Assembly (NCBI GenBank): GCA_019310485.1
Contig: JAFDEF010000011.1
Location: 6,919-70,918 of the forward strand
DNA length: 64,000 nucleotides
DNA from: Deltaproteobacteria bacterium
Lineage (GTDB): Bacteria; Desulfobacterota; DSM-4660; Desulfatiglandales; HGW-15
Reading direction: 5' to 3'
This document shows positions 2,652 through 47,927 of this stretch, in pieces. The first letter of the stretch is position 1; every line of letters begins with the position of its first letter. The notes under the pieces are model-generated. The model was given only the letters and a program-made list of their open reading frames with translations. It had not been told where the DNA came from and searched no databases. A program made the position numbers and the translations under genes.

Positions 2652-2715
2652 TTGACAAGTGCTGCCCGCATATTAGACCTTATTCGCAGATGTGCAGTTG
2701 CTGCTCATTTGTGCA
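2652..2715 (+). promoter_or_regulatory. Sigma70-like promoter with tandem operator, site 1
   Basis: TTGACA at 2652-2657; boxes TTCGCAGATGTGCA (2683-2696) and TGCTCATTTGTGCA (2702-2715), 5 bp apart. Confidence 0.7.
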
Positions 2716-2784
2716 CCTGCCTCGATGATGAAAGGAGCATAATCTGACTTTTATCAAAAGTTGTGCTTTTCAATGAGGGATTTT

Positions 2785-3129
2785 ATGGCAGAATGCTGTG
2801 TTCGGTGGGATGAAATGCCTTGGGAAATGGTGAGTGAAACAATCAAGCGCAAGGTCTGCTTGGGAAAGCAAATAATGATGGTTTTTTACTGTTTTGAACC
2901 GTTTGCTCAGTGGCCCGAGGAAAGACACATGGCTGAACAAGCCGGATACGTTATCGAGGGAAAAATCGTCTTGAAGCAGCCTGGTGATGGAAGAGAAACA
3001 GTTCTTGGTCCCGGAGACGGGTATCTAATCGAATCCAACAAAAAGCATTCATGGAGAGTTCTGGAGGAAAAGGTGGTCTTGCTCGATATTTTTTCTCCGC
3101 CAAGGATGGAATTGATCGGGCAATCATAG
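2785..3129 (+). CDS. Cupin domain protein
   Basis: PEERHMAEQAGYVIEG...LGPGDGYLIESNKKH...DIFSPPR. Start trimmed to the ATG after GAGGG. Confidence 0.85.
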   Translation: MAECCVRWDEMPWEMVSETIKRKVCLGKQIMMVFYCFEPFAQWPEERHMAEQAGYVIEGKIVLKQPGDGRETVLGPGDGYLIESNKKHSWRVLEEKVVLLDIFSPPRMELIGQS

Positions 3130-3192
3130 TTTCAAGGTTCATTTATGTCATAAGTCAGTCAAATCTCGGTTTTCGAGGCGGAGACAGGAGAA

Positions 3193-4692
3193 GTGAGAGG
3201 GGATCTGCAGCAGAACAAACAGGGTCGAAACGTATACGATGTAATTGTTGTCGGAGGTGGCATTGTAGGAAGTATGATAGCAAGGGAGCTATCTAAATAT
3301 AAGGGCCGCTTTGCGTTGGTTGAAAAAGAGCCGTCTACCGGTTTCGGAGTGTCAAAGGCGAATCCTTCAATGCTTCATTCAGCTTTCATGTTCCCTTCAG
3401 GGCCTTTGCGGCACAGGCTTGTATACGATGCCGCTTCCCGGTACAGGAAACTTGCCGGAGAACTGGACGTTGTCTTCAACGAAGTTGATGAGATCTTTGT
3501 GGCTCTTAACACCACTCAGCTTGAAAAGCTGGAAAAGGCACAAAAGTGGGCCGAAGAAAATAATTTGCCTGGCGGCCACAGGATGATCGGGGCAGGTGAA
3601 TTGCTGGAATTGGAACCCCATGTTACACCAAAGGCGCTGGGGGCCCTTCACGGCAAAGGGGTGGGCGGGATATACGCTCCTGAATGGACGTTTGCTTTAG
3701 TGGAAAACGCTGTCCAGAATGGTCTTGAGCTTTACCTTAGTACAGAGGTTAAGGATATCGGCAGAGAAAAGGACTTCCAATACGATGTGGTCACTTCTAA
3801 AGGGATCCTTGGGACTCGCTACCTGGTCAATGCGGCCGGCCTTTTCGTAGATGAAATAGCGCGAATGGTGGGGGACAATGACATAAAGTTGATACTGACC
3901 AAGGGCGTTATGGCTATCCTTGATAAATCTGTTTCACACCTGGTTCGAAATATGGTTTACGGATCCTACGGAAAGGATCACAGCCAATTGGTAACACCCA
4001 CCGCACATGGTAACATCCTGATCGGAATGGGGTATTTCACGTGCCCGGAGCATAAAGCCGACACCGGGGTCTCGGGAGAAAAGCTGAGTGAGGTTGTTGA
4101 AATGGCCAAGGAGCTCATACCGGCCGTTTCTGAAAAAGATGTTATTACATCATTTGCAGGCATTCGCTCTGAAAATACAAAGGCCCAGGTTATGGGTGAC
4201 TTCTACATTGGGGAGTCGGAACATGCACCAGGTGTGATCCACGCTGCAATAGGTTCTCCTGGACTTACGGCTGCCCCGGCGATTGCGGAGTATGTGATCG
4301 AGTTACTTTCTAGGGCTGGTATGGCCATGGAGGAGAAAAAGGATTTCAAGAAACACAGAACCGGCTGGCGTCGTTTCGAGGAGGCTTCTTTTTCGGAAAA
4401 AGAAAAAATGCTTGCATCTGATCCGAGATATGGGCACGTTGTTTGTCGGTGCGAGCAAGTGACCGAGGCGGAAATCCTGGAAGCTATCCGGCGAGGAGCA
4501 GATACTACTGATGCAGTGAAGCACCTGACAAGAGCCGGCATGGGGAGGTGCCAGGGAGGATTTTGCGGGACTGGCGTTTTGAACTATCTTGCAAGATACA
4601 TGGGAATTTCTCCAACCGATGTTACAAAAAAGGGGGTAGGGTCTTATCAGGTTTGCGGCTTCACTAAAGAAAAGAGGTCTCAGCATGGATAG
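3193..4692 (+). CDS. GlpA/LhgO-like FAD-dependent oxidoreductase with C-terminal BFD-like [2Fe-2S] domain
   Basis: GGGIVG FAD motif, NAAGL, SPGLTAAPAIA, CRCEQVT...RAGMGRCQGGFC; AGGAG RBS before GTG. Confidence 0.88.
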   Translation: MRGDLQQNKQGRNVYDVIVVGGGIVGSMIARELSKYKGRFALVEKEPSTGFGVSKANPSMLHSAFMFPSGPLRHRLVYDAASRYRKLAGELDVVFNEVDEIFVALNTTQLEKLEKAQKWAEENNLPGGHRMIGAGELLELEPHVTPKALGALHGKGVGGIYAPEWTFALVENAVQNGLELYLSTEVKDIGREKDFQYDVVTSKGILGTRYLVNAAGLFVDEIARMVGDNDIKLILTKGVMAILDKSVSHLVRNMVYGSYGKDHSQLVTPTAHGNILIGMGYFTCPEHKADTGVSGEKLSEVVEMAKELIPAVSEKDVITSFAGIRSENTKAQVMGDFYIGESEHAPGVIHAAIGSPGLTAAPAIAEYVIELLSRAGMAMEEKKDFKKHRTGWRRFEEASFSEKEKMLASDPRYGHVVCRCEQVTEAEILEAIRRGADTTDAVKHLTRAGMGRCQGGFCGTGVLNYLARYMGISPTDVTKKGVGSYQVCGFTKEKRSQHG

Positions 4693-4832
4693 AGTGGATG
4701 AAAGCTGTTATGGATCAAAATGCTTTTCAGTCTGCGGCAAGAATGGCCTTGCGTGGCACCGGGTGGAATGGGATACTCAGTGAGGGTCACCAGGCACAAA
4801 GTGGCGTGAAGTTTGGAAAGGAGAAGAGGAAA

Positions 4833-5903
4833 ATGAGTACAATACCTGAAACCATGAAGGCGGCAATACTAATGGGCCCAAACCAGCTTGAGGTGAAAGA
4901 GGTTCCCACTCCGAAGCCGGGGCCCATGGAAGTATTGTTGAAAGTGGCATCCTGCGCTTGTTGCAGTACTGACGTAGCACTCATGGCAAAGCCTTTCCCC
5001 GGGCAACCCCCTTACGGGAGTTTTATTCCTGGGCATGAATATGCAGGGGAGGTCGTTGCACTTGGAGACACGGTTGATGAGTTCAAAATAGGGCAAAGGG
5101 TTGCGGTAGAGGCGCACCTTGGGTGCATGCGCTGCCGTAATTGCCGGGTGGGAAACTATACGGCATGTCTAAATTACGGAACGCCCAAACATAGAGCAAA
5201 TGGAATGACTTCAAACGGCGGTTTTGCCCAGTATGTTGTCAATAACATAAACACTGTTCATGCAATACCTGATCACGTAGGGTTCAATGAGGCAGCTTTG
5301 ATAACGAACCTTGGTTGCGTTCTCTACGGTTTTCAAACTGTGGGAGGGTACGTTGCAGGGGATCATGTGGCAGTTATTGGCCCTGGACCCTTAGGTCTTA
5401 TTTCTTCGCAGGTTGCCAGGGCCTTTGGGGCTGAGATGGTATATCTGATAGGCACCCGAGCCTCAAGGCTTACAAAAGGGGCAGAGACAGGTGCTCACCG
5501 CGTGATAAACATACACGAGGAAGATCCGGTGAAGGTGGTGCTGGAGGGAACCAACGGAGTTGGCGCGGACCTCGTAATCGAGTCCTCCGGCGCTAGCGAT
5601 GCCCCCATGATGGCGATCAAGATGGTAAAGCCTATGGGTAAAATCCTTCTGCTCGGCTTCCCTCACGAACCTGTCCTGGTTGATCTGGAAGACGTGCTCA
5701 TGAAAAACAAATCGATTTATGCTGTGCGCGGTGAAGGGTGGGCAAATCTGAGAAGAGCCGTCTCGCTCATAGGGTCAGGGAAGATAGACCTAAAGCCGTA
5801 TGTTACCCACACATTTCCTCTTGATGAGATAAATACGGCTTTTAAGACTTTCATTGAGCGGATCGGTGGGGCAGTGAAGGTCGTGGTAAAGCCCAATGAA
5901 TAA
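4833..5903 (+). CDS. Zinc-dependent (MDR) alcohol dehydrogenase, paralogue A
   Basis: CSTD, GHE, structural-Zn CxxCxxCx7C, GPGPLG. Start trimmed to MSTIPETMK. Confidence 0.9.
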   Translation: MSTIPETMKAAILMGPNQLEVKEVPTPKPGPMEVLLKVASCACCSTDVALMAKPFPGQPPYGSFIPGHEYAGEVVALGDTVDEFKIGQRVAVEAHLGCMRCRNCRVGNYTACLNYGTPKHRANGMTSNGGFAQYVVNNINTVHAIPDHVGFNEAALITNLGCVLYGFQTVGGYVAGDHVAVIGPGPLGLISSQVARAFGAEMVYLIGTRASRLTKGAETGAHRVINIHEEDPVKVVLEGTNGVGADLVIESSGASDAPMMAIKMVKPMGKILLLGFPHEPVLVDLEDVLMKNKSIYAVRGEGWANLRRAVSLIGSGKIDLKPYVTHTFPLDEINTAFKTFIERIGGAVKVVVKPNE

Positions 5904-5975
5904 TGTGAGCTATGCCTTTGTTCTTGGGCTTTGCTAAGAGACGAGGTCTTGGTGAGCAGCATGGGAGATAGTATC

Positions 5976-7214
5976 ATGGAAAAGACGGTTTTACTGGTTG
6001 CAACGCTGGACACGAAGGAAGAAGAAGCCTTTTATTTGAAACAATGCATTACATCCCAAGGGATTGGTGTCATTGTTATGGATACCGGCATTCTTTCGTC
6101 CCCAAAAAGGAAACCTGATGTAACGCAGGGTGAGGTTGCCAAGCGCGGGGGGATTCCGCTCAAAGAAGCAGTGGCTACCGGGGACAAAGCTAAGTGCACT
6201 GCCAATATGAGCAGGGGTGCCGTGGAGATTGCTAAAGAGCTCTATGGTAAAGACCTTATCCATGGAGTTGTTGGAATAGGGGGGGCACAGGGAACCGAGA
6301 TTGCATGCGCTGCCATGCGGGCCCTGCCTGTAGGCGTGCCCAAGGTAATGGCATCTGCAGTTGCACAAGGAAGGCACATGTTTGGGTTCTATATGGGCAC
6401 AAAAGATCTTACCATTATGCATACGGTATCCGATATGCAAGGGCTCAACTTCTTGACAAGGCGTATTCTTGAAAATACAGCGGCCGCTATTTGTGGCATG
6501 ATCAGAAGCTTGAAAGAAGATACCATGAAGCCAAAGGGAATCCCTGTTGCCATGTCCATGCTGGGGACAACCACCCCTGGAGCGCTCAGAGCTAAAAGCA
6601 TCCTGGAAGGAGAAGGTTATGAGGTAGTGCCTTTTCATCAAAATGGAACTGGCGGCATTTGCATGGAAGACCTTATCCTGGAGGGGTATTTTGAAGGCGT
6701 GTTGGATTTGAACCTCCATGAGATTGGCGATGCCTTTGTTCATGGAATTCACGGCGCAATAAGGGAGGATAGGGCAGAAGCTGCTGGAGCAATGGGATTG
6801 CCCCAGGTCGTAGCGCCCGGGAGTACCAATTACACGGTCCAGGGAACTCCAGAAAGCCTCTCTGAGGAAATGAAAAAGCGTAAATGTTTTTATTACAACA
6901 AGGACCTCACCCTGGTACGATTGCTCCCCGAGGAGCTACGACAAGTGGGGAAGATCGTGGCCAGAAAACTCAACAAGGCAAAAGGCCCGGTGAAAGTATT
7001 TATTCCCCTGAAAGGATGGTCATTCCCAGACAGGGAGGGCTTACCCCACTGGGAGCCCGAAGGAAACCAGGCTTTTGTTGATGCCCTGAAAGAAAATCTT
7101 AATCCCTCTATTACCGTTATCGAACTTGATGCTCACATCAATGACCCTGATTTTATTGACCCGGTGGTCAAGGAGTTCATGTCCATGATGAAACAAAGGA
7201 AGCCGGCCGGTTAA
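5976..7214 (+). CDS. Tm-1-like ATP-binding domain protein (UPF0261)
   Basis: ATLDTKEEE, GIGGAQGT, LPVGVPKVM, SMLGTTT, FHQNGTGG, HINDPDF motifs. Confidence 0.9.
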   Translation: MEKTVLLVATLDTKEEEAFYLKQCITSQGIGVIVMDTGILSSPKRKPDVTQGEVAKRGGIPLKEAVATGDKAKCTANMSRGAVEIAKELYGKDLIHGVVGIGGAQGTEIACAAMRALPVGVPKVMASAVAQGRHMFGFYMGTKDLTIMHTVSDMQGLNFLTRRILENTAAAICGMIRSLKEDTMKPKGIPVAMSMLGTTTPGALRAKSILEGEGYEVVPFHQNGTGGICMEDLILEGYFEGVLDLNLHEIGDAFVHGIHGAIREDRAEAAGAMGLPQVVAPGSTNYTVQGTPESLSEEMKKRKCFYYNKDLTLVRLLPEELRQVGKIVARKLNKAKGPVKVFIPLKGWSFPDREGLPHWEPEGNQAFVDALKENLNPSITVIELDAHINDPDFIDPVVKEFMSMMKQRKPAG

Positions 7215-7298: not shown

Positions 7299-7633
7299 TA
7301 TTTAGTTTGAGGGATCAGTCAGATAACTTCCATTTGCTCCGTGGCTTTAATGCAATGGTGAACGTCAGGCGGGCAATAGATAACATCCCCCGGCCTTAGC
7401 TTCTCTTCTTTATCTCCCATAATGCCTATGCCTTGGCCTTTTAAAACAAAGAATTCGTGTTCCCAGGGATGGCTATGCTCAGGACTTTTCCCCCCTGCTT
7501 CAATTGTGAGAACGCGCAAGTTGAAATTAGGAGCCCCATCCTTTTCCGTAATGATATGCCGGATTACGGTTTTTTCCGCACCGTCAAAGTCAACGACCTC
7601 TGGTTCCTGGTCCATATAATGAATGTGTTTCAT
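7298..7633 (-). CDS. TM1459-like cupin, candidate selenoprotein (in-frame TGA at 7319-7321)
   Basis: APNFNLR...HSHPWEHEFFVLKG...HH. Reading through the TGA gives EVI-U-LIPQTK-TAG, matching the family C-terminus EFL-C-LIP. A hairpin follows at 7280-7298. Confidence 0.75.
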
Positions 7634-7722
7634 GTTTTTCCTCCTTTAGTTTTCTTGGAAATGCCTTTCCGTTCACCCGGAGGCTGGAAATCAACCAGGG
7701 AAGAACCAGAGCACTTCTTTTC

Positions 7723-8742
7723 TTAGAGCGTCAAAGCGATTCTTCCTGGTGTTGTCTTGTTCCTCAAGGCATCCAAGGCATCGTTAGCTTGTGCAAATGG
7801 ATATGTTTTTGTGACAACAGGCTCTATTTCCCCTCTTTCGACGAGCTTTATGAGATCGAGAAGTTCTGCTTTTGTTACAAAGCGGGATCCTTTGATTTCA
7901 TACTCATGGTAGTGCATGGCCATGGTATCCAGGGGGAAAGGCCTTCCGGGAGCATACCCGACGATTATGAGCCTTCCTCCGCTTTTGAGTGAAGGAAACG
8001 ACCACTTGAGCGTTTCAGGCGCACCCACGATCTCGATTACAGCATCAACACCTGCTCCCTGTGTCAGATCATGAAGGGCTTGCTCGGCTTTTTCAGGCTT
8101 AAGGGTCTCATCAGCGCCATATTTCTTGGCAAGGTCGAGGGCATTTTCTTCTATATCAACAACAATAACCCTTGCCCCGCTTAGTTTTGCAATCTGCACA
8201 GCATGGATGCCAAGGCCGCCTGCACCCACAATGAGTACATCCTGGCCCGGTTTTACGCGGGCAAGCGTTGTTATTGCGTGATAAGAAGTGCCGATAGCGT
8301 CTGCCAGAATCGCCATCTTGTGAAGATCCAGACTTTTTTGAAACGGGCAGAAATTGTACGCTGGAATCACAAGGTATTCTCTAAATCCTCCTTCAAGCTC
8401 AAACCCCACTCTTTTCAGATTATCGCACAAGTTTTCTCTACCTGTAAGGCACCTCATACATTTGTGGCAGGTTACGTAAGAGTAAACCACCCCCACATCA
8501 CCGGTGTGAATTTCTGTGACATTTTCCCCAATAGCTGATATCTCCCCCACCACCTCGTGACCGAGAACGTGAGGTAGATTCACTATTGGAGGAGGGATAT
8601 CCCCCCTGATAATCTTAAGATCAGTCTGGCATATACCGCAGGCTTTTACCTTGACAAGAACTTCATCAGGCCCCGGAGAGGGAATTTCTCTATCAACCAT
8701 CTGGAGCGCTTCGTTGTAAGAATTGAGAACAAGGGTTTTCAT
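7723..8742 (-). CDS. Zinc-dependent alcohol dehydrogenase (AdhP-like MDR)
   Basis: CGICQTD, GHE, CxxCxxCx7C, GAGGLG. Confidence 0.9.
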   Translation of the reverse strand: MKTLVLNSYNEALQMVDREIPSPGPDEVLVKVKACGICQTDLKIIRGDIPPPIVNLPHVLGHEVVGEISAIGENVTEIHTGDVGVVYSYVTCHKCMRCLTGRENLCDNLKRVGFELEGGFREYLVIPAYNFCPFQKSLDLHKMAILADAIGTSYHAITTLARVKPGQDVLIVGAGGLGIHAVQIAKLSGARVIVVDIEENALDLAKKYGADETLKPEKAEQALHDLTQGAGVDAVIEIVGAPETLKWSFPSLKSGGRLIIVGYAPGRPFPLDTMAMHYHEYEIKGSRFVTKAELLDLIKLVERGEIEPVVTKTYPFAQANDALDALRNKTTPGRIALTL

Positions 8743-8806
8743 GATTTCTGCCTTTCATCTGAGAGTGAAAAGAACAGTGAGAAAGCCTCTTTGAAAGAAA
8801 CCATTC

Positions 8807-9688
8807 TTACCCCAGTTCAGCTTTCTCAATTGCATCCTTGACCAGTTGTTTCTTGGCATCGCTCAAAGGCAACAACGGCAGGCGGGGAGGACCTCCATAG
8901 TAACCTGCAAAATCCATGGCCTGCTTTACACCTGCAACCCCGCCGGCACCGGAGACCGACTGGTTGAGGCGAAAAAGTTTGGAATGAAGCTCCCTTGCGC
9001 CTCTCACGTTCCCTTGCATGAATTTTTCGTAGAGCTTACAGCAGGGTTCCGGGAATGCATTGGCAAGGGAAACAACGCCTCCTGAAGCACCCAGGCTTAG
9101 GCCAATAAAAAGCGTGTTGATCGTGCCTGCAAGAACATCAAAATCAGGGCTGCAAACCTCCAGGTAGTGGGCGATACCGGCGGGAGAGGTATCTTTCATG
9201 CCACCTATGTTTGGGTGCCTGGAAACAACCTCAATCACCCTGGGACTCAATGTGACCCCGGTAAATCCGGGAGCATTGTAAACAAAGACTGGAACATTCA
9301 CAGCATCTGCGACGTCCGTATAATAACCAATAAGGGCGTCATCGGTGAGCGACTTCTTGAAATAACTGGGCGTGAGCAAGGAAACGATATCTGCACCAAT
9401 TTCCTGGGCCTTTTTCGAAAAAGCTATGGTTTGCCTGGTTGATTCATAACCCGTGCCCGCCATCACGATCTGGCTGTCAGCCTTTTCCCGAATGACTGTT
9501 TCAAGTACGCTCAGTTTTTCTTCATCAGTGAGGCTCTTGTTTTCACCGTTGCTTCCAAGAACCAGAAACCCACTCAGTGGGGTTTCCCTATATTTTCGAA
9601 CGTTTTCTTTCAAGTGTTCAAGAGAGACTTCCTCGTTTACAAAAGGAGTCGTGATCGGTGCGAAAATTCCGGATACTTTGCCACCCAT
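8807..9688 (-). CDS. DapA/NAL-family class I aldolase, HOGA-like
   Basis: APITTPF, GSNGE (as in 4-hydroxy-2-oxoglutarate aldolase), YNAP, Schiff-base GMKDT, PRLPL. Confidence 0.85.
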   Translation of the reverse strand: MGGKVSGIFAPITTPFVNEEVSLEHLKENVRKYRETPLSGFLVLGSNGENKSLTDEEKLSVLETVIREKADSQIVMAGTGYESTRQTIAFSKKAQEIGADIVSLLTPSYFKKSLTDDALIGYYTDVADAVNVPVFVYNAPGFTGVTLSPRVIEVVSRHPNIGGMKDTSPAGIAHYLEVCSPDFDVLAGTINTLFIGLSLGASGGVVSLANAFPEPCCKLYEKFMQGNVRGARELHSKLFRLNQSVSGAGGVAGVKQAMDFAGYYGGPPRLPLLPLSDAKKQLVKDAIEKAELG

Positions 9689-9783
9689 AGTTATACCTCC
9701 AAGAAGCATAAGAAAAAAAGCAAAAGTGTGTACCGTCTATAAAAAAGCTACTGCAAAAAGAGAAATGCAGGTGCTAAAGGCAT

Positions 9784-10980
9784 CTATCCGCAAAAGGCTG
9801 CCACTCGCTTTGCCACAAAATCCACCATCTGCTGCGTAGCTTTGCTAAACTGACCAGCAGTGGCAAGCAAAGCCGGGTGAGAGTTAAACTCTTCAGCGCT
9901 GTAGCCGTCCTCAGCATAACCCTTTTCAAAGTAGGGAATTTTCATCAGCTTGTCCATTACTTCTTGTGGAACAGGCTCATAAATTTGGTTGCTAAACTCT
10001 AAATGCCTGCCTTTGAAAAAAAGCCCTTCCAGATAGGGGGGAGGACATGTGAACACTGCATTGGCACCTGCAGTTTTTTCTACGTGCCAGGATCGGACAA
10101 CCCCGTCTACGGTCGGGCTCATCCTCATCGAGCAAAGAAGCATTTTTCCGGGATACTCGTTGTTTTCATCAACCAGCCGGCACGCCTTCTTGAAGATCGC
10201 TATTTCAGCCCAGCGAACATCGGCTTCGCTCAGCTCTATGTTTCTTTCCTGTGCTTCTTTTTGCAAATCTCCCAAAGTACCGTAGCGGGCGCTCATGGCG
10301 GTAATCACGGAACGCCACTTGCTTAGGTCAACACCTTTGGCCTTTGCCTCCTTAATCCCTTCAGCCACTGCGTTCATGCAGGCTACAAATTGAGGAATTA
10401 TGAAAGCCAGGGTGTTGTTGGTGGGTATGGCCCTTGCAGTCAGTTGTTTGATTACCTCGTAGCCTTCGGCTGTACCCGGGACTTTAATCATGACATTGGG
10501 TGAGAGGGAATGGAGTTCTATGCCCTGGCTCACCATTTTTTCAACGTCATGGCGTATCCTGGGATCTACCTGCCCTGAAATAAAACCATACTTATAATTC
10601 GTTGCTTCAAAAATTGGCAAATACGCCTCTGCTCCTCGCTTCACTATCTCTTTATAAGTATCCCAGAACACGACTTCAGAATCAGTGCAGCGGTCTTTAC
10701 CTATCCGGTCATCAATCCATTTGGACCAATAGTCCGGGTTGTCTTTGATCGCATTGTAGGATAGCGGCGGATTCGTGGTCACGCCTCGGAAGATATTGTC
10801 CTCCGGGTTGTTGTTCTCACTGTACAAACGGTCCAGCCAGGCTGTCATTTCCTCTTTGTCGGAAGCCTGCTCAATCATCTTCTTCCGCCAGTTGTCATAA
10901 ATAAGTGGGGATGAATCCCACCATATCTCAGCTTCAGGATTAACCTCCCATAATCTTTCAATAACACTTTTTGACGCCAT
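9784..10980 (-). CDS. Transaldolase-family protein (atypical)
   Basis: WWDS, GVTTNPPL, SGQVDP, Schiff-base MIKVPGT, NNTL. Confidence 0.85.
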   Translation of the reverse strand: MASKSVIERLWEVNPEAEIWWDSSPLIYDNWRKKMIEQASDKEEMTAWLDRLYSENNNPEDNIFRGVTTNPPLSYNAIKDNPDYWSKWIDDRIGKDRCTDSEVVFWDTYKEIVKRGAEAYLPIFEATNYKYGFISGQVDPRIRHDVEKMVSQGIELHSLSPNVMIKVPGTAEGYEVIKQLTARAIPTNNTLAFIIPQFVACMNAVAEGIKEAKAKGVDLSKWRSVITAMSARYGTLGDLQKEAQERNIELSEADVRWAEIAIFKKACRLVDENNEYPGKMLLCSMRMSPTVDGVVRSWHVEKTAGANAVFTCPPPYLEGLFFKGRHLEFSNQIYEPVPQEVMDKLMKIPYFEKGYAEDGYSAEEFNSHPALLATAGQFSKATQQMVDFVAKRVAAFCG

Positions 10981-11001
10981 TTTTCCCCTCCTGCAACAAA
11001 A

Positions 11002-11364
11002 TTAATCACGAATGTCATCAGAGGCCAGAAGATCAACACCGGTTCCCAGAAAATTAGGAATTATCACATCACCGATCTTGATCGGTGGTTGAACCTTCAC
11101 TTTTGATAGCTCATCCATGGCCCTGAATATTTCCCTTTTAGGTATCCCTGTTCTGGTTCGAACAGGCAGCCTTTTGCTTCGACTCTGTTCAACAACGACT
11201 GTAGAAGTCAAAATTCGTTTTGGCTCGAGGAATTCTTGCTTGAGGTATTCTTTGCCCCTTTTGCAGACTTCGCCTTTTATTATTACATTGCCATCCTCCA
11301 TCCAGACTCTGGCATGGCATCCTTTAGGGCAGGTAATACATATGAGATCTTTGGCTCCCTTCAC
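11002..11364 (-). CDS. DUF1667 small CxxC metal-binding subunit
   Basis: ICITCPKGC...CKRG...PKRILTSTV...LPVRT. Confidence 0.85.
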   Translation of the reverse strand: MKGAKDLICITCPKGCHARVWMEDGNVIIKGEVCKRGKEYLKQEFLEPKRILTSTVVVEQSRSKRLPVRTRTGIPKREIFRAMDELSKVKVQPPIKIGDVIIPNFLGTGVDLLASDDIRD

Positions 11365-11367
11365 AGC

Positions 11368-12621
11368 CTACCTCTCCTCGCAACGGATTTGAAGTTTGCT
11401 CACAGATGGGCCCATTTGCGAGAAAATTTTCTTTGGAATTTTCAAGCGAATCATTTCGCTAGGCCGGGCATAGGAAAATTTTTTCTCAAAGTTTTCCCCC
11501 ACTCTGAGCACCATTTTCCCCATGGGTTTCTTAACTCTTAAATAAAAGATAGTTTCACGGTCCCCGGATATTTTTTGGGGAACAACTTGGCCTACACCTT
11601 CATCTGCCTCGACTTCCATGATTCGTTCACGTCCGAGCGTTTTTCCCTTGATGCGTTCATAAGCTCCAGTGGCGGCAAGTTCTCCTTCATTGGACACATT
11701 GTCAACAAGATCATTTACATGAAGGACGTTTCCGCAGGAAAAAATTCCTTCCACACTTGTTTCCAGACAGTCATTAACATATGGTCCGCCTGTTTTAGGA
11801 TCAATAAGCACGCCTGCCTGCTTGGAAAGTTCATTTTCAGGGATCAGGCCTACTGAAAGCAGCAAGGTGTCACATTCCACATATTGCTCCGTTCTCTTTA
11901 TCGGATTCCAGTCAGTATCGACTTTAACGAGCGTGACCCCTTCCACACGCTTATCTCCGTGAATTTCGGCAACCGTGTGACTCAGTAGAAGGGGTATCTC
12001 ATAGTCGTTCAAGCACTGGACCACGTTCCTGATGAGGCCGCTGGAATAGGGCAAAATCTCGGCGACCGCAACGACCTCAGCCCCCTCCAAGGTAAGGCGC
12101 CTGGCCATTATAAGGCCAATGTCCCCTGAACCAAGTATTACAACTTTTTCCCCAGGCATGTATCCTTCGATGTTTATAAGCCTCTGGGCATGCCCGGCTG
12201 TAAAAATCCCCGCCGGTCTCGTACCGGGTATTCCAAGGGCGCCCCTGGGCCTTTCCCTGCATCCCATCGCAAGGATGATTGATTTACACTCGTATTTGCG
12301 CAAGCCGCTATGTTCACTGACGGAAGTTAGTGTCCTGTCTTTTTCGATTTCCAGAACAGTGGTGTTAAGCTCGATATCAATGCCGGCGGATTCGGCCATT
12401 TTAATATATCGGTTCGCATACTCGGGACCTGTCAACTCTTCTTTGAATTTTTCAAGGCCAAACCCGTTGTGGATGCATTGCCTCAGAATCCCACCGGGCA
12501 GTTCATCCCGCTCAAAGACAACCAGATTCTTAACACCCCTCCTGTCAGCCTCTACGGCAGCAGCGAGACCGGCTGGGCCGGAACCGATAATAGCAATATC
12601 CAGCTTAGATCTTTTCAACAT
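11368..12621 (-). CDS. NAD(P)/FAD-dependent oxidoreductase (thioredoxin-reductase-like partner subunit)
   Basis: GSGPAG, GGILRQCIHNGFG, ELTGPEY, GCRER, GSGDIGLIMARR, GNVLHVNDLVD. Start trimmed to MLKRSK, overlapping the upstream stop. Confidence 0.88.
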   Translation of the reverse strand: MLKRSKLDIAIIGSGPAGLAAAVEADRRGVKNLVVFERDELPGGILRQCIHNGFGLEKFKEELTGPEYANRYIKMAESAGIDIELNTTVLEIEKDRTLTSVSEHSGLRKYECKSIILAMGCRERPRGALGIPGTRPAGIFTAGHAQRLINIEGYMPGEKVVILGSGDIGLIMARRLTLEGAEVVAVAEILPYSSGLIRNVVQCLNDYEIPLLLSHTVAEIHGDKRVEGVTLVKVDTDWNPIKRTEQYVECDTLLLSVGLIPENELSKQAGVLIDPKTGGPYVNDCLETSVEGIFSCGNVLHVNDLVDNVSNEGELAATGAYERIKGKTLGRERIMEVEADEGVGQVVPQKISGDRETIFYLRVKKPMGKMVLRVGENFEKKFSYARPSEMIRLKIPKKIFSQMGPSVSKLQIRCEER

Positions 12622-14114: not shown

Positions 14115-14116
14115 TG

Positions 14117-15661: not shown

Positions 15662-15712
15662 TATTCGATTCCCCTCAAATTATTGTCTTGTTTGTGATTC
15701 AGTCCTTGTACT

Positions 15713-17437: not shown

Positions 17438-17456
17438 GACATGTTTCCCGTTTTCG

Positions 17457-41046: not shown

Positions 41047-41919
41047 TCAGACCTGGAGCAGGTCTGTGTGGCCTGCCACTTTAAGATGGGCCTCCAAGGA
41101 TCGAATGACAATCGGAATAAGGGCAGTTTCAGGGAGCCCCAGTGAGCTCAGTACTCGCGCCCCAAGGGTTGTCACATCAGAAGCAGGAAAATCCGCACTC
41201 TCTTTCAGGACGATGCTATGGATATTTTGGAAATAGTTCAAGCCTTCCTCCATCAAGGGATATATAGAGTCTCCAAGGTGAGGTTCGTCCCATGAGGCCA
41301 TGAGGACCTTCAATCCTTTCACTTTCTGTAATTTCCTGATGGAGGCAATTGAAGGCAACACCTCGTCGTAAATGGGAACACCACCTGCCATTGGAATTGC
41401 ATCTCCAGAAAAAAGCGCCATATCAGGCTCAAGCACGAAAGAGACAGATCCCTTTGAATGGCCGGGAGTATGAAAGACCTTCAGGGTCAATCCCTGCCCC
41501 AGATCAAGGGAATCGCCATCTCTTAGTTCTCTCTCAATGGCTACCGATCCTTCTACAAGCGAATAGAAGTTCAAGATTGGGCGTTCCCTGTACTGGCGGT
41601 CAATGTCTTCGATCCAGGCCGCAGCATCTTTATGTGCAGCCGTGTTGCACCCCGTTTCCTTTTTTATTGCCAGGGCCCCTCCGATATGGTCCGGATGAGA
41701 GTGTGTGAACAGGAGGGTATCTATATCTCCTGGGCTCCTGCCCGTTTCCTCTACATAATCAAATATGGCACGGTGGGACCCAGAAACACCGGAATCAATC
41801 AGGTAGATCTTTTCTCCATAAATGAGATAAGCATAAACAAACCGGCTGAGCGTTTTCTCGGGGCCTACCTGGAGGCTAAAAGGGATTTTCAATGCATGAA
41901 TGTGTTCAGTGACTTTCAT
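41047..41919 (-). CDS. Metallo-beta-lactamase fold hydrolase
   Basis: LIDSG, THSHPDHIGG, HTPGHS, SGD. Confidence 0.88.
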   Translation of the reverse strand: MKVTEHIHALKIPFSLQVGPEKTLSRFVYAYLIYGEKIYLIDSGVSGSHRAIFDYVEETGRSPGDIDTLLFTHSHPDHIGGALAIKKETGCNTAAHKDAAAWIEDIDRQYRERPILNFYSLVEGSVAIERELRDGDSLDLGQGLTLKVFHTPGHSKGSVSFVLEPDMALFSGDAIPMAGGVPIYDEVLPSIASIRKLQKVKGLKVLMASWDEPHLGDSIYPLMEEGLNYFQNIHSIVLKESADFPASDVTTLGARVLSSLGLPETALIPIVIRSLEAHLKVAGHTDLLQV

Positions 41920-41994
41920 TTACTTTCCTCCTCAAAAAAGCTATTTGGCTCTCCAACCTGCGCCCCTGGGCCTTAGGCCAAAGGCTTCAAGCTA

Positions 41995-43503
41995 TCAGCG
42001 ATAAGCCCTTCTTTTTGGCTTTAGGGCCGGAGCAAGAAATGGGCCTATAATTGAAATAGCCGACAAGATAATAAATATAAGACTTATTGGGTGTTTTACA
42101 AAAATAGAAGGATCCCCCTGGGAAATAATCAGGGACATCCTCAGATGTTTTTCCAGATTAGGCCCGAGTATTATAGCAAGAAGCATTGGTACCACAGGGA
42201 AGCCATACTTGTTCATGAAATATGCGAGAAGCCCGAAGCAAAACATTATACCTGTATCAAAAAAGGTGTTTCTTAGGGCATACGTACCTACAATGCAAAG
42301 TGTTGCTATTATGGGCAGAAGGATTTTTTCCGGCACTTTGAGCACAGAAACCCATATTTTTATAGTTGATAGCGATATCAAGAGGTTCATAATATTGGCA
42401 AAGAGAAATGCCCAGAAAACGCTGTAAACAAACTGTGGGGTCTGCTGAAAGAGCAATGGCCCGGGGACCAAGCCATGAATCATAAGTGCGCCCATAAGGA
42501 TGGCCGTGATTGGGTCTCCAGGGATTCCAAGTGTGAGCATGGGAATAAGGGCGCCTCCGGCTACCGCATTGTTTGCTGCTTCGGGGGCTGCAACTCCCTC
42601 CGGTTCGCCCTTGCCGAAATTCAGAGATTTCTTTGAAATCCGCCTGGCATAATCGTAACTGAGAAAGACTGCGATAGGACCTCCGGCCCCGGGAATAGCG
42701 CCCACCCCAGTTCCTACGAGCGCTCCCAAACTCATTGGCTTCAGCAGCTTCAAAATGTCCCTAATTCTTGGGAGAACGCCGGATATCTTGTCCCTGTATT
42801 GGGGAATCACCCTGGTCTTGCCTGCTATGCCGACCAGAACCTGTGGTATTGCAAAAAGACCGATCATGGCGGGCAAAAAGGAAATACCCGCCTGGAGTTC
42901 CACAACACCAAAAGTGAACCTGGGGGTTCCCATCATGGGATCCAGGCCAACGGTCATAATAATAAGTCCAAGAATACCGGAGATCAACGCCTTCACCATC
43001 GAGGTCTGGCCAAAACTGCAAATAAGGGTTATACCGAGCAGAACAAGGGCAAAAAGTTCGGGAGCCCCGAATCTAAGCGCAGCCTTGGCTATTAAAGGAG
43101 AAGCGAGAGCAAGACAGACCAGCCCGAACATCCCTCCAAAAAAAGAGGAGGTCACAGCAGTGCCTAGTGCTCTTCCTCCTATTCCTTTCTTCGTCATTTC
43201 ATGTCCGTCAATTGCGGTTGCCGATGCGGAAGGCGTCCCTGGAATATTGAGAAGTATTGCAGAAAAGGATCCTCCGGTCATGCCGGAAGCAAAAAGGCCC
43301 AACAACAGGCATATCGATGTTACCGGAGGTAGGTTAAAGGTTATGGGCAAAAGAAGGACCATTCCCAGGGATATAGTGAGGCCGGGGGTCGAGCCAATAA
43401 AGAGCCCAAATACGACTCCTACCATAATTGCAAAAAGGTTCTGGATGTGAAGCACCTCAAAAAGTGCTGCAAGGGCCATTGAATGCATAAAGTACCCTGT
43501 CAA
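41995..43503 (-). CDS. Tripartite tricarboxylate transporter large permease, TctA family
   Basis: GSTPGL, NIPGTPS, PEAANNA, LTLGIPG. Start could be at 43488 or 43479. Confidence 0.92.
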   Translation of the reverse strand: MTGYFMHSMALAALFEVLHIQNLFAIMVGVVFGLFIGSTPGLTISLGMVLLLPITFNLPPVTSICLLLGLFASGMTGGSFSAILLNIPGTPSASATAIDGHEMTKKGIGGRALGTAVTSSFFGGMFGLVCLALASPLIAKAALRFGAPELFALVLLGITLICSFGQTSMVKALISGILGLIIMTVGLDPMMGTPRFTFGVVELQAGISFLPAMIGLFAIPQVLVGIAGKTRVIPQYRDKISGVLPRIRDILKLLKPMSLGALVGTGVGAIPGAGGPIAVFLSYDYARRISKKSLNFGKGEPEGVAAPEAANNAVAGGALIPMLTLGIPGDPITAILMGALMIHGLVPGPLLFQQTPQFVYSVFWAFLFANIMNLLISLSTIKIWVSVLKVPEKILLPIIATLCIVGTYALRNTFFDTGIMFCFGLLAYFMNKYGFPVVPMLLAIILGPNLEKHLRMSLIISQGDPSIFVKHPISLIFIILSAISIIGPFLAPALKPKRRAYR

Positions 43504-43959
43504 TCAAAAAATCAGGCCGCCGGGGAGTTGGACCTGAAAAACTTTTTGGAAAAAGAAATAAATGCCGACAGTGGCGAGGACTGAAACCGCCACAATGCCT
43601 TTCCACTTCCGTGCGCCGGAGGACAACATCAAGACAGCAATAAAGAGCGGCGTTGTCATAAGAAACCCGGCATAGCTCATTACCCTGACGTAAAGATAGA
43701 CGAGGAGGGTGAGAAAAATGACTCCTCCCACTTCTCTGACCGTGATTCCCTGCCCTTGTTTTGGCTTGGATTTGGTAAAAACACTCTTCAGGAGAAGAAT
43801 GAGGGAAAGGGAAAACAGGATGATAAATAGCGTCCAGGGCATGAAATCTATTCCCAGCGTATTGGGGAGATTTCTCTGAGGCAGCCTTGCTGTGAGAAAG
43901 GCAAAGAAAGAGCAGAAAGCAATAAGTATGGCAGAGATTATAATATTTGCCTTTTTCAT
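43504..43959 (-). CDS. Tripartite tricarboxylate transporter small permease, TctB family
   Basis: Four hydrophobic segments ending VQLPGG, between TctC and TctA. Confidence 0.85.
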   Translation of the reverse strand: MKKANIIISAILIAFCSFFAFLTARLPQRNLPNTLGIDFMPWTLFIILFSLSLILLLKSVFTKSKPKQGQGITVREVGGVIFLTLLVYLYVRVMSYAGFLMTTPLFIAVLMLSSGARKWKGIVAVSVLATVGIYFFFQKVFQVQLPGGLIF

Positions 43960-43979
43960 TGGAGAACCTGGAAATAGGG

Positions 43980-44007
43980 AAGGGCTGAAAAACCATTTTC
44001 AGCCCTT
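43980..44007. other. Intergenic stem-loop between tctC-like and tctB-like genes
   Basis: Perfect 12-bp inverted repeat AAGGGCTGAAAA-ACCA-TTTTCAGCCCTT. Confidence 0.6.
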
Positions 44008-44030
44008 ATTTTCTTTAGTATTTCCCTGGC

Positions 44031-44990
44031 TTATTTGACAAGCCCTCCCAGTCTCATAGCTTTTGCTATGCTTGCATCCTGAACCTTCAGGTAAGCTTCA
44101 AATTCCTTTCTTCCCATGTAACTGACCTTGAAGCCTTTTTGTTTGGCAATCTTTTGAAATTCCGGGCTCTCCGCACCTTTCCTGAAGGCTTCTGCAAGTA
44201 TGTTTATGATGCTCACAGGCGTGCCTTTTGGAACGCTGATACCCCTGAAAAGCTCCATCACTATTGGGTACCCCATTTCCTTCAGGGTTGGGATATTCGG
44301 GTATGCAGGATCCTTTTTTGCGGTTGTCATAATAATAATTCTCGCCTGTCCTGCCTGAACTTGCGGGGCAATTTCAGGGATAGGAACACAAATAGCCTCT
44401 ACCTCTCCTCCAAGCAAACTCGGTACACGGCGTTTACCCCCAAGCGGCACATGAATTACTTTGATTCCAAATTCCTTTTCAATTAGCACTGCGGTTAGAT
44501 GTGTGCCGCTTCCCGTTCCCGCATTTCCAATCTTTATTTTCCCGGGGTTTTTCTTGGCATACGAGATGAACTGCTCAAATGTTTTCCAGGGAGCATCTGC
44601 TCGAACGGCAATCGGCATACCTGTATATCCGATCCTGCATACGTGGTCAAAAGCAGTGTACTTGAAAGGCACATTGCCTATATTGGTGGAGGTGAGAATG
44701 GATAGAGAGTTCCACCCAACGGTGTACCCGTCACGACGAGATGCCTTAAGGGCGCTATACATAATGCCGCCCCCTGCGCCCGGCCTGTTCACGGCAACTA
44801 TGGGCTGGCCGAGATAGGGCTTCGTCCCTGCTGCAAGTGCTCTTCCCATGAGGTCGGCAGCTCCACCTGCACCAAAAGGAATCAGGAACTTTATTGGTTT
44901 TTTAGGGTAATCTGCAGCCGACGCCATGCCAAGGGCAATGGTAAGACTCAAAAAGATAGCCACCAGAAAAAATAATTTCTTGCTCTTCAT
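44031..44990 (-). CDS. Tripartite tricarboxylate transporter substrate-binding protein, TctC/Bug family
   Basis: Signal peptide, YPKKPI..IPFGAGGAAD, NRPGAGG, DGYT, PTLKE. Confidence 0.92.
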   Translation of the reverse strand: MKSKKLFFLVAIFLSLTIALGMASAADYPKKPIKFLIPFGAGGAADLMGRALAAGTKPYLGQPIVAVNRPGAGGGIMYSALKASRRDGYTVGWNSLSILTSTNIGNVPFKYTAFDHVCRIGYTGMPIAVRADAPWKTFEQFISYAKKNPGKIKIGNAGTGSGTHLTAVLIEKEFGIKVIHVPLGGKRRVPSLLGGEVEAICVPIPEIAPQVQAGQARIIIMTTAKKDPAYPNIPTLKEMGYPIVMELFRGISVPKGTPVSIINILAEAFRKGAESPEFQKIAKQKGFKVSYMGRKEFEAYLKVQDASIAKAMRLGGLVK

Positions 44991-45081
44991 GATACCTCCT
45001 TTTCGCTTTAGTTACGGGTGAAAAAATAAGTGAGTCTCCACAAACCCATACCAGACCTTACTTACTCCGCGGGGAATCAGT

Positions 45082-46149
45082 TCAGGGATGCACGACAACC
45101 TTTAGTGCATTATCCTTTCGTTCCATGAAAGTTGTGAGCGCTTCATTGATATTTTCCAGAGGAAAAGTGTGGGTGATGAGACTTTTGCCTTCAATTTTAC
45201 CCTCGGCCATCAACGAAATAGCCCTGTGTACGCTCATACGGCCTTCCCCCCTAACAGTGAATATATTAATTCCGTTCTTGACGGCAAGGCCTATATCGAT
45301 AGTCACAGGATCGTCGAAGTGAGCAAGTAACACGATCTCTCCACCCCTTCGAGTCATTTCAAGTGCCTGCTGAAGACTCTCTTCCATGCCTGCTGCCACC
45401 AGTACCAGGTCGGCGCCGATGCCAGAGGTAAGTTCCCTTACTATTTCAACGGGGTTTTCCCTGTTAACATTGACCACGTTATCCGCGCCCAGTTTTTTCC
45501 CCAGCTCGAGCCTGTCGTCCCTGGTTCCGTTCAAGATCACCCTTCCTGCACCCAATGCTTTACAGCACTGAACAGCCATCAGCCCAATAGACCCAGGACC
45601 AAGAATGGCTACCGCCTCACCCGAGATATAGCCGCCTGCCATGTCTATCCCGTAGAGTGAAGTACCGGCCGTTGTCGCCAGTGTTGCTTCCTCAAAAGAA
45701 ATGTTATCAGGGAGTTTGCATAGGGTATTTACATGATTAACAGCATACTCAGCGAAACCTCCATTTGTTGTGAAACCATTCGCCCGATGGCCTTTTTCAA
45801 AGTTACCGTAGTTAAGGCAGGCAGTGTATTTTCCCATAATGCAGTTCTTGCAACGCCCGCAACCCTTGTGAACTTCCACAACCACTCTGTCTCCCGGCTT
45901 GAACTCGTCAATTCCTTCTCCAACCGCTGCTATTGTACCGGAATATTCATGTCCTATGATAAATTCTTCAAAAGGCGGCTGTTTTGGCATCCCTCTTTTT
46001 ATTATTTTGATATCCCCACCGCAGACTCCGCACGCAGCAATTTTTACAAGAGCCTCGTCACGCCCCGGAAGGGGTACTTTGCGCTCAACAACCCTGACAT
46101 CGTTAAAGCCATAAAGGACCGCGGCCTTCATTTTTTCCGGTATTTTCAT
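45082..46149 (-). CDS. Zinc-dependent (MDR) alcohol dehydrogenase, paralogue B
   Basis: CGGD, GHE, YTACLNYG...HRANGFTTNGGFAEY, GPGSIG. Confidence 0.9.
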   Translation of the reverse strand: MKIPEKMKAAVLYGFNDVRVVERKVPLPGRDEALVKIAACGVCGGDIKIIKRGMPKQPPFEEFIIGHEYSGTIAAVGEGIDEFKPGDRVVVEVHKGCGRCKNCIMGKYTACLNYGNFEKGHRANGFTTNGGFAEYAVNHVNTLCKLPDNISFEEATLATTAGTSLYGIDMAGGYISGEAVAILGPGSIGLMAVQCCKALGAGRVILNGTRDDRLELGKKLGADNVVNVNRENPVEIVRELTSGIGADLVLVAAGMEESLQQALEMTRRGGEIVLLAHFDDPVTIDIGLAVKNGINIFTVRGEGRMSVHRAISLMAEGKIEGKSLITHTFPLENINEALTTFMERKDNALKVVVHP

Positions 46150-46328
46150 GAAGTTTACCCCTGGTGTTCCTTGCCCGTGTTCTCAAAGGTAAAACTTGAC
46201 CCCAGCCAAAGCCAGTATCTAGAATCAAGGGGCATAAATGTCTGCTCCGCTTGCGTAGACTTCACCAAAGCAATCGCTCCTCTCTCGAGCGATCAATCAC
46301 AGGCTTGGCTTCAGGGAGGGTATTCCCG

Positions 46329-46739
46329 CTACGTACTGCCCCCATCAGCTCGGTTCAATAATATATCAATTGCCGGATGGTTTTGTATGTTTTTCTTAAC
46401 TACACACACATCGGCTGCCGATTTGATGGCATTTAGATATTTTTCAGGAAAATCCTTTGCCACTTCAATATCTACGACAATTCTTCCAATCAGTCCGGAT
46501 GTCCGGTCATTTTCGGATCTAACTCTTAACTTGACTTTGTTTCTTGGTATGTCGTGTTTTTCACAGAAGAACTGGATGTAGAAGCCCGCACATGTTCCGA
46601 TAGAGGCGAGAAGGAGTGCAGTTGGGGAGGGCTCCGTACCTTCTCCCCCGGCGGTCTTTGGTGCATCAGTTGGAATCGTGAACCCGTTGTAAAGGGCGTT
46701 TACTTTCTTGCCCCCTAATACTTCTATCTCTAGTTCCAT
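46329..46739 (-). CDS. OsmC family protein
   Basis: TDAP..GGEG..PSP..LLLASIGTC...C.V. Confidence 0.88.
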   Translation of the reverse strand: MELEIEVLGGKKVNALYNGFTIPTDAPKTAGGEGTEPSPTALLLASIGTCAGFYIQFFCEKHDIPRNKVKLRVRSENDRTSGLIGRIVVDIEVAKDFPEKYLNAIKSAADVCVVKKNIQNHPAIDILLNRADGGST

Positions 46740-46821
46740 AACTAACCTTGAAATTGATCAGGATTCTCGTGTCGTATAGATCGCAGCGATAACCATGGTG
46801 ATCGCATTTTTCTTTTCGGGC

Positions 46822-47196
46822 TTAGAGGTTCTTCTCAGGGCCAGGAGGAGAGTAAATTATTATGTAGGTGAAGTCTTCCAAAGGGTCTGCCCAGACATAG
46901 TGCATTTCGCCGGGCGGGACATAGACCGTGTCACCTGGCTTCAGATTGTAAGGCTTTTCATTAATTGAAATCCCACCTGTTCCTGAAAGAACATGCATGC
47001 AATGCTCTTCCTCGTGACTGTGCCCGAGGCCTGTCTGGTTACAGTTAAGGCCTGCCTTCATGGTGTTCACAAGGAATGAGAACCGTGTTATTCCGCAGCT
47101 TTCCTCATCAAGGACTATTTTGCATCTAACTGAACCGCCGTGGGTAATCTTTTCTGCCACTTCATCAATCGGAAAAACATATTTTTTTTCAGCCAT
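46822..47196 (-). CDS. Cupin domain protein
   Basis: GHSHEEEHCMHVLSG...PGDTVYVPPGEMH...YSPPGPE. Confidence 0.88.
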   Translation of the reverse strand: MAEKKYVFPIDEVAEKITHGGSVRCKIVLDEESCGITRFSFLVNTMKAGLNCNQTGLGHSHEEEHCMHVLSGTGGISINEKPYNLKPGDTVYVPPGEMHYVWADPLEDFTYIIIYSPPGPEKNL

Positions 47197-47375
47197 GATT
47201 TCTTTTCCTCCTAAAATGGTTGATTAATTCGACCCTTTCAACCTCTCAGGCTCAAGGCCTCTATTTTCCAAGGGCAAGGGAGATTACTGAAATTTCTTGC
47301 GCCCCAGGGATAAAATACCCCGCCAGCAAAGCTGCCGTCTTGAAAGTTCCACCCGCAAGCAGGTGTCGTGATTGG

Positions 47376-47744
47376 CTATTCCTTCACTTCAATAAAATCA
47401 GCACCAACGGGGGGGCACGTGAAGAATTCTATGTAGCGAAACTCTTCGTTTGAACGGTTAATGGTTCCGTGTTTTTCACCTGGCTGTATACATATCACAT
47501 CACCGGGCCTTAGTGTTATTTCTTTGCCTTCAACTGTTTCAATAGCCTCGCCGCTGATCGGAATAATCACCGATTCCCTGTCCTGGTGGTAGTGATACGG
47601 GACCTCTTTTCCAGGAACCAGCACGGCGAAGAGTCCACCAAGATCCTTGAACCCATCTTCCTTTTTCAGGACCTCAACCCGGTAGAACTCCTGGGGATTG
47701 GGGTTTTCGAAGCTGAGAAATTCTTCTGTTTTTAGGAGCTTCAT
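47376..47744 (-). CDS. Cupin domain protein
   Basis: PYHYHQDRES...PGDVICIQPGEKH. Confidence 0.88.
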   Translation of the reverse strand: MKLLKTEEFLSFENPNPQEFYRVEVLKKEDGFKDLGGLFAVLVPGKEVPYHYHQDRESVIIPISGEAIETVEGKEITLRPGDVICIQPGEKHGTINRSNEEFRYIEFFTCPPVGADFIEVKE

Positions 47745-47824
47745 GGTATGTCCTCGCTTCCTGAGTTGGGGGGCGGCCTCCAGCAGGCGGTCAAAAGTAA
47801 TTCAAACTTCCCAATTTCCTAGAA

Positions 47825-47927
47825 TGCTCAAATGAGCAAATCTGCACAATTGTAGTAAATAGGCTCAGAAATAGTGTTTTGTCAAGAAAAAATGGAACGG
47901 GTTGCTCTCAAATTGAAAGTGTTGACA
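47825..47927. promoter_or_regulatory. Divergent promoter region with tandem operator, site 4
   Basis: TGCTCAAATGAGCA (47825-47838) and TGCACAATTGTAGT (47843-47856); minus-strand TTGACA at 47880-47885 and plus-strand TTGACA at 47922-47927. Confidence 0.7.

Follow-up and report, generated by a model that had tools for sequence, protein, structure and literature searches.

Four tandem operators in a 45-kb gene island

The DNA analysed here is a 64,000-nucleotide stretch of a deltaproteobacterial genome (the window; C51:6919-70918 of an assembly of 3,637,494 bp in 103 contigs, labelled G000) in which four promoters share a tandem operator, one of them heading the operon that encodes a SorC-family regulator. 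Each operator consists of a strong and a weak 14-bp box, and we find all eight boxes at the coordinates given in an earlier reading of the sequence, hereafter the original prediction, which had proposed a SorC-family regulon. The spacers between strong and weak boxes, described there as 4-5 bp, measure 5, 5, 5 and 4 bp at sites 1-4, and the order that it gave, TTGACA, 17-25 nt, weak box, strong box, gene, is true of all four sites. At each of the four promoters a T-rich tract precedes the TTGACA. A leader of 67-123 nt separates the strong box from the first gene, and the 17-25-nt stretch between the -35-like element and the weak box is unconserved among the four. The elements, as read from the sequence, are as follows.

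2652..2657, + strand: -35-like TTGACA of promoter 1, with a T-rich tract ahead of it; weak box 1 begins 25 nt downstream
2683..2696, + strand: weak box 1, TTCGCAGATGTGCA
2702..2715, + strand: strong box 1, TGCTCATTTGTGCA
14606..14619, - strand: strong box 2, TGCTCAAATGAGCA in the direction of transcription
14625..14638, - strand: weak box 2, TACACAGATGTGCA in the direction of transcription
14664..14669, - strand: -35-like TTGACA of promoter 2, with TATCAA 17 nt downstream
24328..24341, - strand: strong box 3, TGCACAAATGAGCA in the direction of transcription
24347..24360, - strand: weak box 3, GTATCAGATGTGCA, overlapping a -10-like TATCAG
24378..24383, - strand: -35-like TTGACA of promoter 3, which serves the SorC operon
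47825..47838, - strand: strong box 4, TGCTCATTTGAGCA in the direction of transcription
47843..47856, - strand: weak box 4, ACTACAATTGTGCA, with a 4-bp spacer to the strong box
47880..47885, - strand: -35-like TTGACA of promoter 4

The operators precede four operons, whose genes were annotated with Pfam and NCBIfam and whose limits were judged from gene spacing.

2761..7214, + strand: operon 1, four genes, namely cupin, FngA-like dehydrogenase, zinc-dependent alcohol dehydrogenase (Zn-ADH) and UPF0261
2773 or 2785, + strand: probable start of the operon 1 cupin, the first gene
3193-4692, + strand: operon 1 FngA-like flavin adenine dinucleotide (FAD)/[2Fe-2S] dehydrogenase, a second copy, an A subunit without partners
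4698-5903, + strand: operon 1 Zn-ADH
5931-7214, + strand: operon 1 UPF0261 kinase-family protein
7279-7299: terminator-like hairpin after operon 1
7319..14482, - strand: operon 2, eight genes, in the order cupin, FngA-like DAO+BFD protein, FngB-like Pyr_redox_2 protein, FngC-like DUF1667 protein, transaldolase-like protein, dihydrodipicolinate synthase (DHDPS)-like aldolase, Zn-ADH, cupin
11002-14114, - strand: the FngABC-like trio of operon 2 (DAO+BFD, Pyr_redox_2, DUF1667)
14681..14707, - strand: intrinsic-terminator-like hairpin of 11 pairs plus a T run, which ends operon 3 directly upstream of promoter 2
14783..24260, - strand: operon 3, ten genes, in the order D-2-hydroxyacid dehydrogenase (TTG start at 24260), creatininase-family hydrolase, short-chain dehydrogenase/reductase, HpcH-type aldolase, SorC and a five-gene Liv-type ATP-binding cassette (ABC) transporter (binding protein, two ATPases, two permeases); gene order the same in the relatives G061, G018 and G006
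19713..20651, - strand: SorC/DeoR-subfamily regulator of 312 aa (PF04198), the proposed repressor
41047..47744, - strand: operon 4, eight genes, in the order cupin, cupin, OsmC-like, Zn-ADH, TctC, TctB-like, TctA, metallo-beta-lactamase (MBL)-fold hydrolase

The SorC gene lies within the operon headed by site 3, as had been claimed, and the placement of that operator fits autoregulation. The other three operons do begin with Cupin_2 proteins (Pfam); these leading cupins share only 17-23% identity with the first one, so their shared position does not reflect duplication, and we regard them as unrelated paralogues that are unnecessary to the regulon argument. The earlier figure of roughly 30 dispersed genes holds as a count (4+8+10+8 = 30) if the spacing-based operons hold, and fails as to dispersal, since the genes form one 45-kb island. 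A terminator scan finds no intergenic hairpin within the operons as strong as that at 14707-14681. This hairpin abuts the -35 element of promoter 2 (window 14676-14707), with the same layout in G018 (L025, about 430-470), and because it sits directly upstream, the conserved TTTTTG tract before TTGACA is the T run of the terminator.

Architecture, specificity and conservation of the operator

The weak-box consensus TACWCAGATGTGCA and the strong-box consensus TGCWCAWWTGWGCA make up a 33-bp operator, TACWCA-GA-TGTGCA-N5-TGCACA-WW-TGAGCA, that is nearly its own reverse complement around the spacer, which is 5 bp long at 17 of the 18 sites assembled from the window, relatives and metagenomes and 4 bp at one. 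By sequence architecture alone, the two 14-bp boxes form a bipartite operator of the SorC-family kind. Upstream sequence is available for 17 sites, and in every one of them TTGACA (16) or TTGAAA (1) stands 17-27 nt before the weak box and a hexamer starting with TA follows 16-18 nt after the -35 element (the entry for one locus, L094, assigned by eye; L numbers denote fetched loci or contigs). The weak box begins 17 nt past the -35 element at seven sites (window site 3, L022, L024, L053, L057, L086 and L094), and in six of these its first six bases, TACTCA or TACTCG, are themselves the -10-like hexamer; at window site 3 the -10-like TATCAG is shifted one base relative to the start of the weak box. 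Under either spacing the two boxes span roughly -12 to +28, an interval that falls within the footprint of RNA polymerase.

We find that the operator is a real, specific and conserved element. Within the window, TGCWCANWTGWGCA with at most one mismatch gives 13 strand-matches where 0.77 are expected, and none of 100 shuffles reaches 13. In the whole 3.64-Mb genome, TGCWCANNTGWGCA has four exact matches, every one at a window promoter, with 16 near-matches at one mismatch and 400 at two. A two-box matrix trained on seven sites, all of them from relatives, and scanned over both genome strands places the window sites on top at 41.9, 41.1, 34.2 and 33.5 bits; ranks 5-6 are window sites on the opposite strand, the next independent match scores 18.6 bits, and the best match in the reversed (not complemented) genome used as a control scores 16.9 bits. 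In this non-circular test about 15 bits separate the four sites from background, and the element therefore marks exactly four promoters in this genome. One lone near-consensus box, TGCTCAAATAAGCA (window 58372-58385, 16 bits), lies between an unannotated open reading frame (ORF) and a PrmA-like methyltransferase gene, and is probably there by chance, since it has neither a weak partner nor a TTGACA.

The comparison covers 61 genomes of the family and 209 of the class (G numbers denote genomes). The exact composite TGTGC-N5/6-TGCWCANNTGWGCA is present in 4 of the 61 family genomes (G000, G018, G026 and G061) and in the same 4 of the 209 class genomes, with none in the reversed control of either set. 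SorC homologues at E ≤ 1e-10 are found in 7/61 family genomes, with at least 70% identity in G000, G006, G018, G026 and G061 only; across the class, 11 of the 209 genomes hold a homologue at E ≤ 1e-30, and the exact composite occurs in 0 of the 198 genomes that lack one. G006 carries a one-mismatch composite, TATACAGATGAGCA-cttat-TGCACAAACGAGCA, before its cupin2 orthologue, the head of its SorC operon being lost at a contig end. With this copy included, the operator and a SorC orthologue of at least 70% identity occur in the same five of the 209 class genomes, counts that are descriptive and carry no statistical test because the genomes are related to one another.

Wherever the head of the SorC operon is assembled, the operator is found there (4/4 genomes: G000, G018, G061 and G026), bearing out the autoregulatory placement. 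The composite precedes the operon that runs from the 2-hydroxyacid dehydrogenase to SorC at L025:499-523 in G018, at L022:6167-6199 in G061 (by matrix) and at L024:8477-8501 in G026. In G026 an ORF that begins like the 2-hydroxyacid dehydrogenase seems to run, in another frame, into a stretch resembling the C-terminal end of the HpcH aldolase (L024:7936-8448, contig C15), so that an internal deletion appears to have taken the catabolic genes and left the operator and SorC. A search for SorC over the genome contigs returned a single locus, in a relative. Other regulon members also keep the site, namely cupin2 in G006, the cupin1 orthologue in G018 and the MBL orthologue in G061, and a degenerate copy stands before the FngA-1 orthologue of G061. 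The motif is found before orthologous operons and before the regulator in several genomes, as expected of an autoregulated local regulon. At the G018 cupin1 orthologue (L026:1730-1837, contig C841), an 83-bp unit with the complete weak and strong operator is tandemly duplicated, with a -35-like hexamer (TTGAAA) on the upstream copy only. G018 also has an operator at the head of a 2-oxoacid:ferredoxin oxidoreductase operon (POR gamma/delta, alpha, beta; L027:3444-6382, contig C1002), a member absent from the window regulon.

A pattern scan of metagenomes matched at least 111 stretches, 80 of which were examined; most of the matches are chance or low-complexity repeats, given about 17 specified bases in so much DNA. 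Seven contigs (L046, L053, L057, L071, L086, L094 and L097) share the promoter architecture, six of them with regulon genes. The composite precedes a dehydrogenase-creatininase pair in L046, L053, L086 and L094, and a cupin-ADH-TctC series matching the genes of operon 4 in L071; in L097 it stands immediately before a SorC gene of 60% identity, and L057 has the same promoter at the contig end. More distant homologues have related boxes: G034 (SorC of 36% identity) carries CGCTCAAATGAGCA-N6-TATCAAATGAGCA about 70 nt before its SorC gene, G172 (35%) carries TACTCAAATGAGCA-N6-GCTCACATGAGC downstream of a TTGACA and before its SorC gene, and G015 (48%) has one TGAGCA-type box just downstream of its SorC gene. 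At three further metagenome sites (L054:691-715, L082:1265-1289 and L090:3806-3829) a TTGACA is followed by tandem TGTGCA/TGCACA boxes, with no homologue of the window regulon within reach; these may belong to related regulators.

The SorC protein as proposed repressor

The 312-residue protein encoded in operon 3 is the sole PF04198 protein of the genome. Its SorC effector domain matches PF04198 over residues 60-311 at 243.2 bits (E 3.5e-72; cut-off 27), and its N-terminal Sigma70_r4-type helix-turn-helix (HTH; residues 9-46, E 4.6e-07) is of the kind expected of the SorC/DeoR subclass. From residue 6-11 on it aligns over its full length with the structures of DeoR, SorC and LsrR, and its best solved relative is Bacillus subtilis DeoR (PDB 8r7y, residues 11-309, E 2.2e-51). 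It falls below the NCBIfam equivalog cut-offs for both DeoR (NF053881; 276.5 vs 420 bits) and LsrR (NF011947; 170.4 vs 486 bits), and the stretch aligned to the DeoR HTH reads SRFKVSRIL here and SRPTVSRLL in DeoR; on these grounds it is a separate member of the SorC/DeoR subfamily. In the Pfam annotation of the window, dra, nupC and pdp are absent from the regulon.

Independent comparative evidence links the tandem operator to the SorC gene and supports the regulon interpretation put forward in the original prediction. We consider it highly probable, from the uniqueness of the sites, their conservation and their linkage to SorC, that this single SorC/DeoR-subfamily protein represses its own operon and the three neighbouring catabolic operons, about 30 genes in the 45-kb island. 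According to the partial texts used for these comparisons, SorC repressors bind bipartite operators as tetramers, the DeoR operator having a strong and a weak half (PMC11229326), and both CggR and LsrR autoregulate (PMC11229326, PMC5137460).

Three characterised systems frame this proposal. DeoR resembles the SorC protein in joining an N-terminal HTH to a PF04198 effector domain, and its operator, a strong palindromic half with a weaker half, is described as bound by a tetramer via avidity (PMC11229326). It differs in its half-site (TTGAA/TTCAA, against TGWGCA here), in the distance between half-sites within a box (11 bp vs 8 bp, counted on the strings printed in PMC11229326), in the position of the operator (-60 to -21, whereas the boxes here overlap -10/+1) and in having its gene outside the operon that it controls, while the regulator here sits inside its own. 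Box-to-box spacing, counted on the printed operator strings of the same source, is 19 bp here, about 20 bp for CggR and 23 bp for DeoR. B. subtilis CggR is likewise an autoregulated repressor within the operon that it controls, with a tandem operator downstream of the promoter, and is described as binding it as a C2-symmetric tetramer, less cooperatively in the presence of a phosphorylated intermediate, fructose 1,6-bisphosphate or dihydroxyacetone phosphate (PMC11229326); unlike the SorC protein it has a winged-helix DNA-binding domain (SorC/CggR subfamily) and matches it weakly (E 1.2e-11), and its operator, at +32 to +77, serves a single target operon. Escherichia coli LsrR, a SorC/DeoR-type repressor that matches the SorC protein at E 5.4e-40, acts through two boxes on its own gene and on a transporter/catabolic operon, and is released by the phosphorylated product of the pathway kinase (PMC5137460); its box sequences differ from those here and the island holds no lsr genes.

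By analogy with DeoR and CggR, the SorC protein would bind as a tetramer, a dimer of dimers that places one pair of DNA-binding domains on each box, with the strong box as its anchor and the weak box occupied cooperatively. The near self-complementarity of the operator suits both the C2-symmetric tetramer of CggR and the avidity model of strong and weak half-operators proposed for DeoR. Since the boxes cover roughly -12 to +28, bound SorC would block RNA polymerase. The LsrR precedent, in which the inducer is a kinase product, suggests a phosphorylated pathway intermediate as effector; this intermediate would loosen the SorC-operator complex, and the UPF0261 kinase-family proteins and the FngABC-type polyol-phosphate dehydrogenase could make and consume it.

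Several points weigh against this account. The 18-site logo overstates conservation, because most of its invariant columns were required by the search pattern. A strict sigma-70 scan gives no promoter at any of the four window sites, the -10-like hexamers lacking a T at position 6, so the promoter call rests on the spacing of TTGACA and TA-hexamer kept across 17 sites, and both the start point and the repressor geometry depend on a non-canonical -10. FngA-like genes occur in 3 of the 61 family genomes, each time with SorC, and the whole island probably does likewise; because it co-occurs as a whole, phyletic co-occurrence alone cannot tell SorC from another factor encoded in the island. The fit to the DeoR mode is by analogy, as the half-sites lie 8 bp apart here and 11 bp apart in DeoR. 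Operon extents follow from gene spacing, that of operon 4, whose first genes are separated by 83-180 bp, being the least certain.

The boxes might instead be operators of another factor, either the XRE-cupin protein encoded in the window at 35486-36124 or one encoded elsewhere, with SorC as a regulated passenger. XRE proteins often use tandem 14-bp palindromes, a 14-bp 6-2-6 palindrome is not specific to SorC proteins, and the co-occurrence of the whole island with the sites leaves the phyletic data ambiguous. In G026 and L097, however, no intact enzyme gene intervenes between the operator and the SorC gene that follows it, and the 35-36% homologues, whose gene contexts differ, retain boxes of the TGAGCA type ahead of their own genes; it is these two positions and the distant homologues that carry the weight of the probable assignment to SorC, and they make another factor improbable. 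As for the XRE-cupin itself, a close orthologue is found only in G018 (73%) and none at E ≤ 1e-20 in G061 (97% complete), G026 (97%) or G006 (83%), all three of which carry the operator; its gene has no box upstream, and we reject it as the regulator because its phyletic pattern does not fit that of the operator.

A second alternative keeps SorC on the boxes and makes it an activator, or a regulator of dual action, instead of a simple repressor. The -10 elements of the window sites are weak, as is often the case at activated promoters; yet at 17/17 sites the boxes lie downstream of the -35 element and overlap the -10 or the start, a typical repressor position. The characterised relatives DeoR, CggR and LsrR are described as repressors (PMC11229326, PMC5137460; partial texts), and we judge activation very unlikely. 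It is extremely improbable that the palindromes work in RNA, forming a hairpin or attenuator in the 5' leader, or that they are a repeated promoter cassette to which no dedicated protein binds, and the RNA-level role is rejected: the strong box can fold a 5-bp hairpin (listed as terminator-like at site 2) and the boxes probably lie inside the transcribed leader, but positions 4 and 11 of the strong box, its W positions, are complementary in only 7/18 sites and so show no compensatory variation, the four leader folds differ and are not significant (z -1.9 to +0.6), the window has no Rfam match, and the unconserved sequence between -35 and boxes means that the sites are not recent copies of one cassette.

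Beyond the proposal of SorC as repressor, we put forward only tentatively, as a rather doubtful extension, that the protein represents an undescribed branch of SorC/DeoR repressors with compact 6-2-6 half-sites and a fully C2-symmetric 33-bp operator, whose promoter-proximal box doubles as the -10 at the own-operon (ancestral) promoter. On this reading the branch would govern an anaerobic polyol or cyclitol-phosphate route, so far uncharacterised, made up of UPF0261 kinases, a bifurcating dehydrogenase of the FngABC type and aldolases of three types, and the phosphorylated intermediate would be the inducer. In the part of the literature covered on SorC operators and regulons and on SorC in Deltaproteobacteria, which does not include RegPrecise, we find no description of this motif or regulon.

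Probable functions of the regulon, and neighbouring genes

The island encodes four Zn-ADHs, an IolN-like hydrolase, aldolases of three types and two uptake systems, a set suggestive of an anaerobic pathway for polyols, cyclitols or sugar acids that passes through a phosphorylated intermediate, although likenesses to IolM, IolN, glycerol-3-phosphate (G3P) oxidase and aldolases all fall below the specific-model cut-offs of NCBIfam. UPF0261 has one demonstrated activity, that of the ATP-dependent kinase MarK, in the partial text of PMC12624787. Operon 2 has adjacent FAD/[2Fe-2S] A, FAD B and DUF1667 C subunits, as in FngABC of Pyrococcus furiosus, an electron-bifurcating G3P:NAD/ferredoxin oxidoreductase with many homologues that appear to use other polyols (PMC13689815, partial text). 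It differs from that system in an A subunit that scores below the cut-offs for the G3P enzymes and in having no glycerol kinase or glpF nearby; the trio is a member of the regulon and not a regulatory element.

The regulon is organised along the lines already known for local, autoregulated SorC repressors and is in that respect a fairly ordinary sugar or polyol regulon, which leaves the understanding of the family unchanged. Its value lies in giving uncultured deltaproteobacteria of hydrothermal sediments, which lack genetics, a clean regulator-operator pair open to experimental test, together with a defined regulon of about 30 genes. One co-regulated unit joins poorly understood families, the UPF0261 kinases, FngABC-like bifurcating dehydrogenases, IolN-like hydrolases and small cupins, which helps to narrow down what their substrate may be. 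The operator, in which a strong box serves as anchor and the weak box overlaps the -10, is one more data point on DNA recognition by SorC tetramers.

Other genes of the window lie outside the proposed regulon. A second UPF0261 gene (window 2-1141) belongs to a divergent ComB-like/HbpS-like operon beside site 1, an arrangement kept in G061 (L148). Between operons 3 and 4, window 25795-29118 encodes a tungsten-type aldehyde:ferredoxin oxidoreductase, a small cupin and a GFO/IDH/MocA oxidoreductase, and has no operator. At window 57234-57917, beside hypA/hypB-like genes, lies the gene for a 227-aa protein with a FUR domain and, at its C terminus, a FeoA domain.

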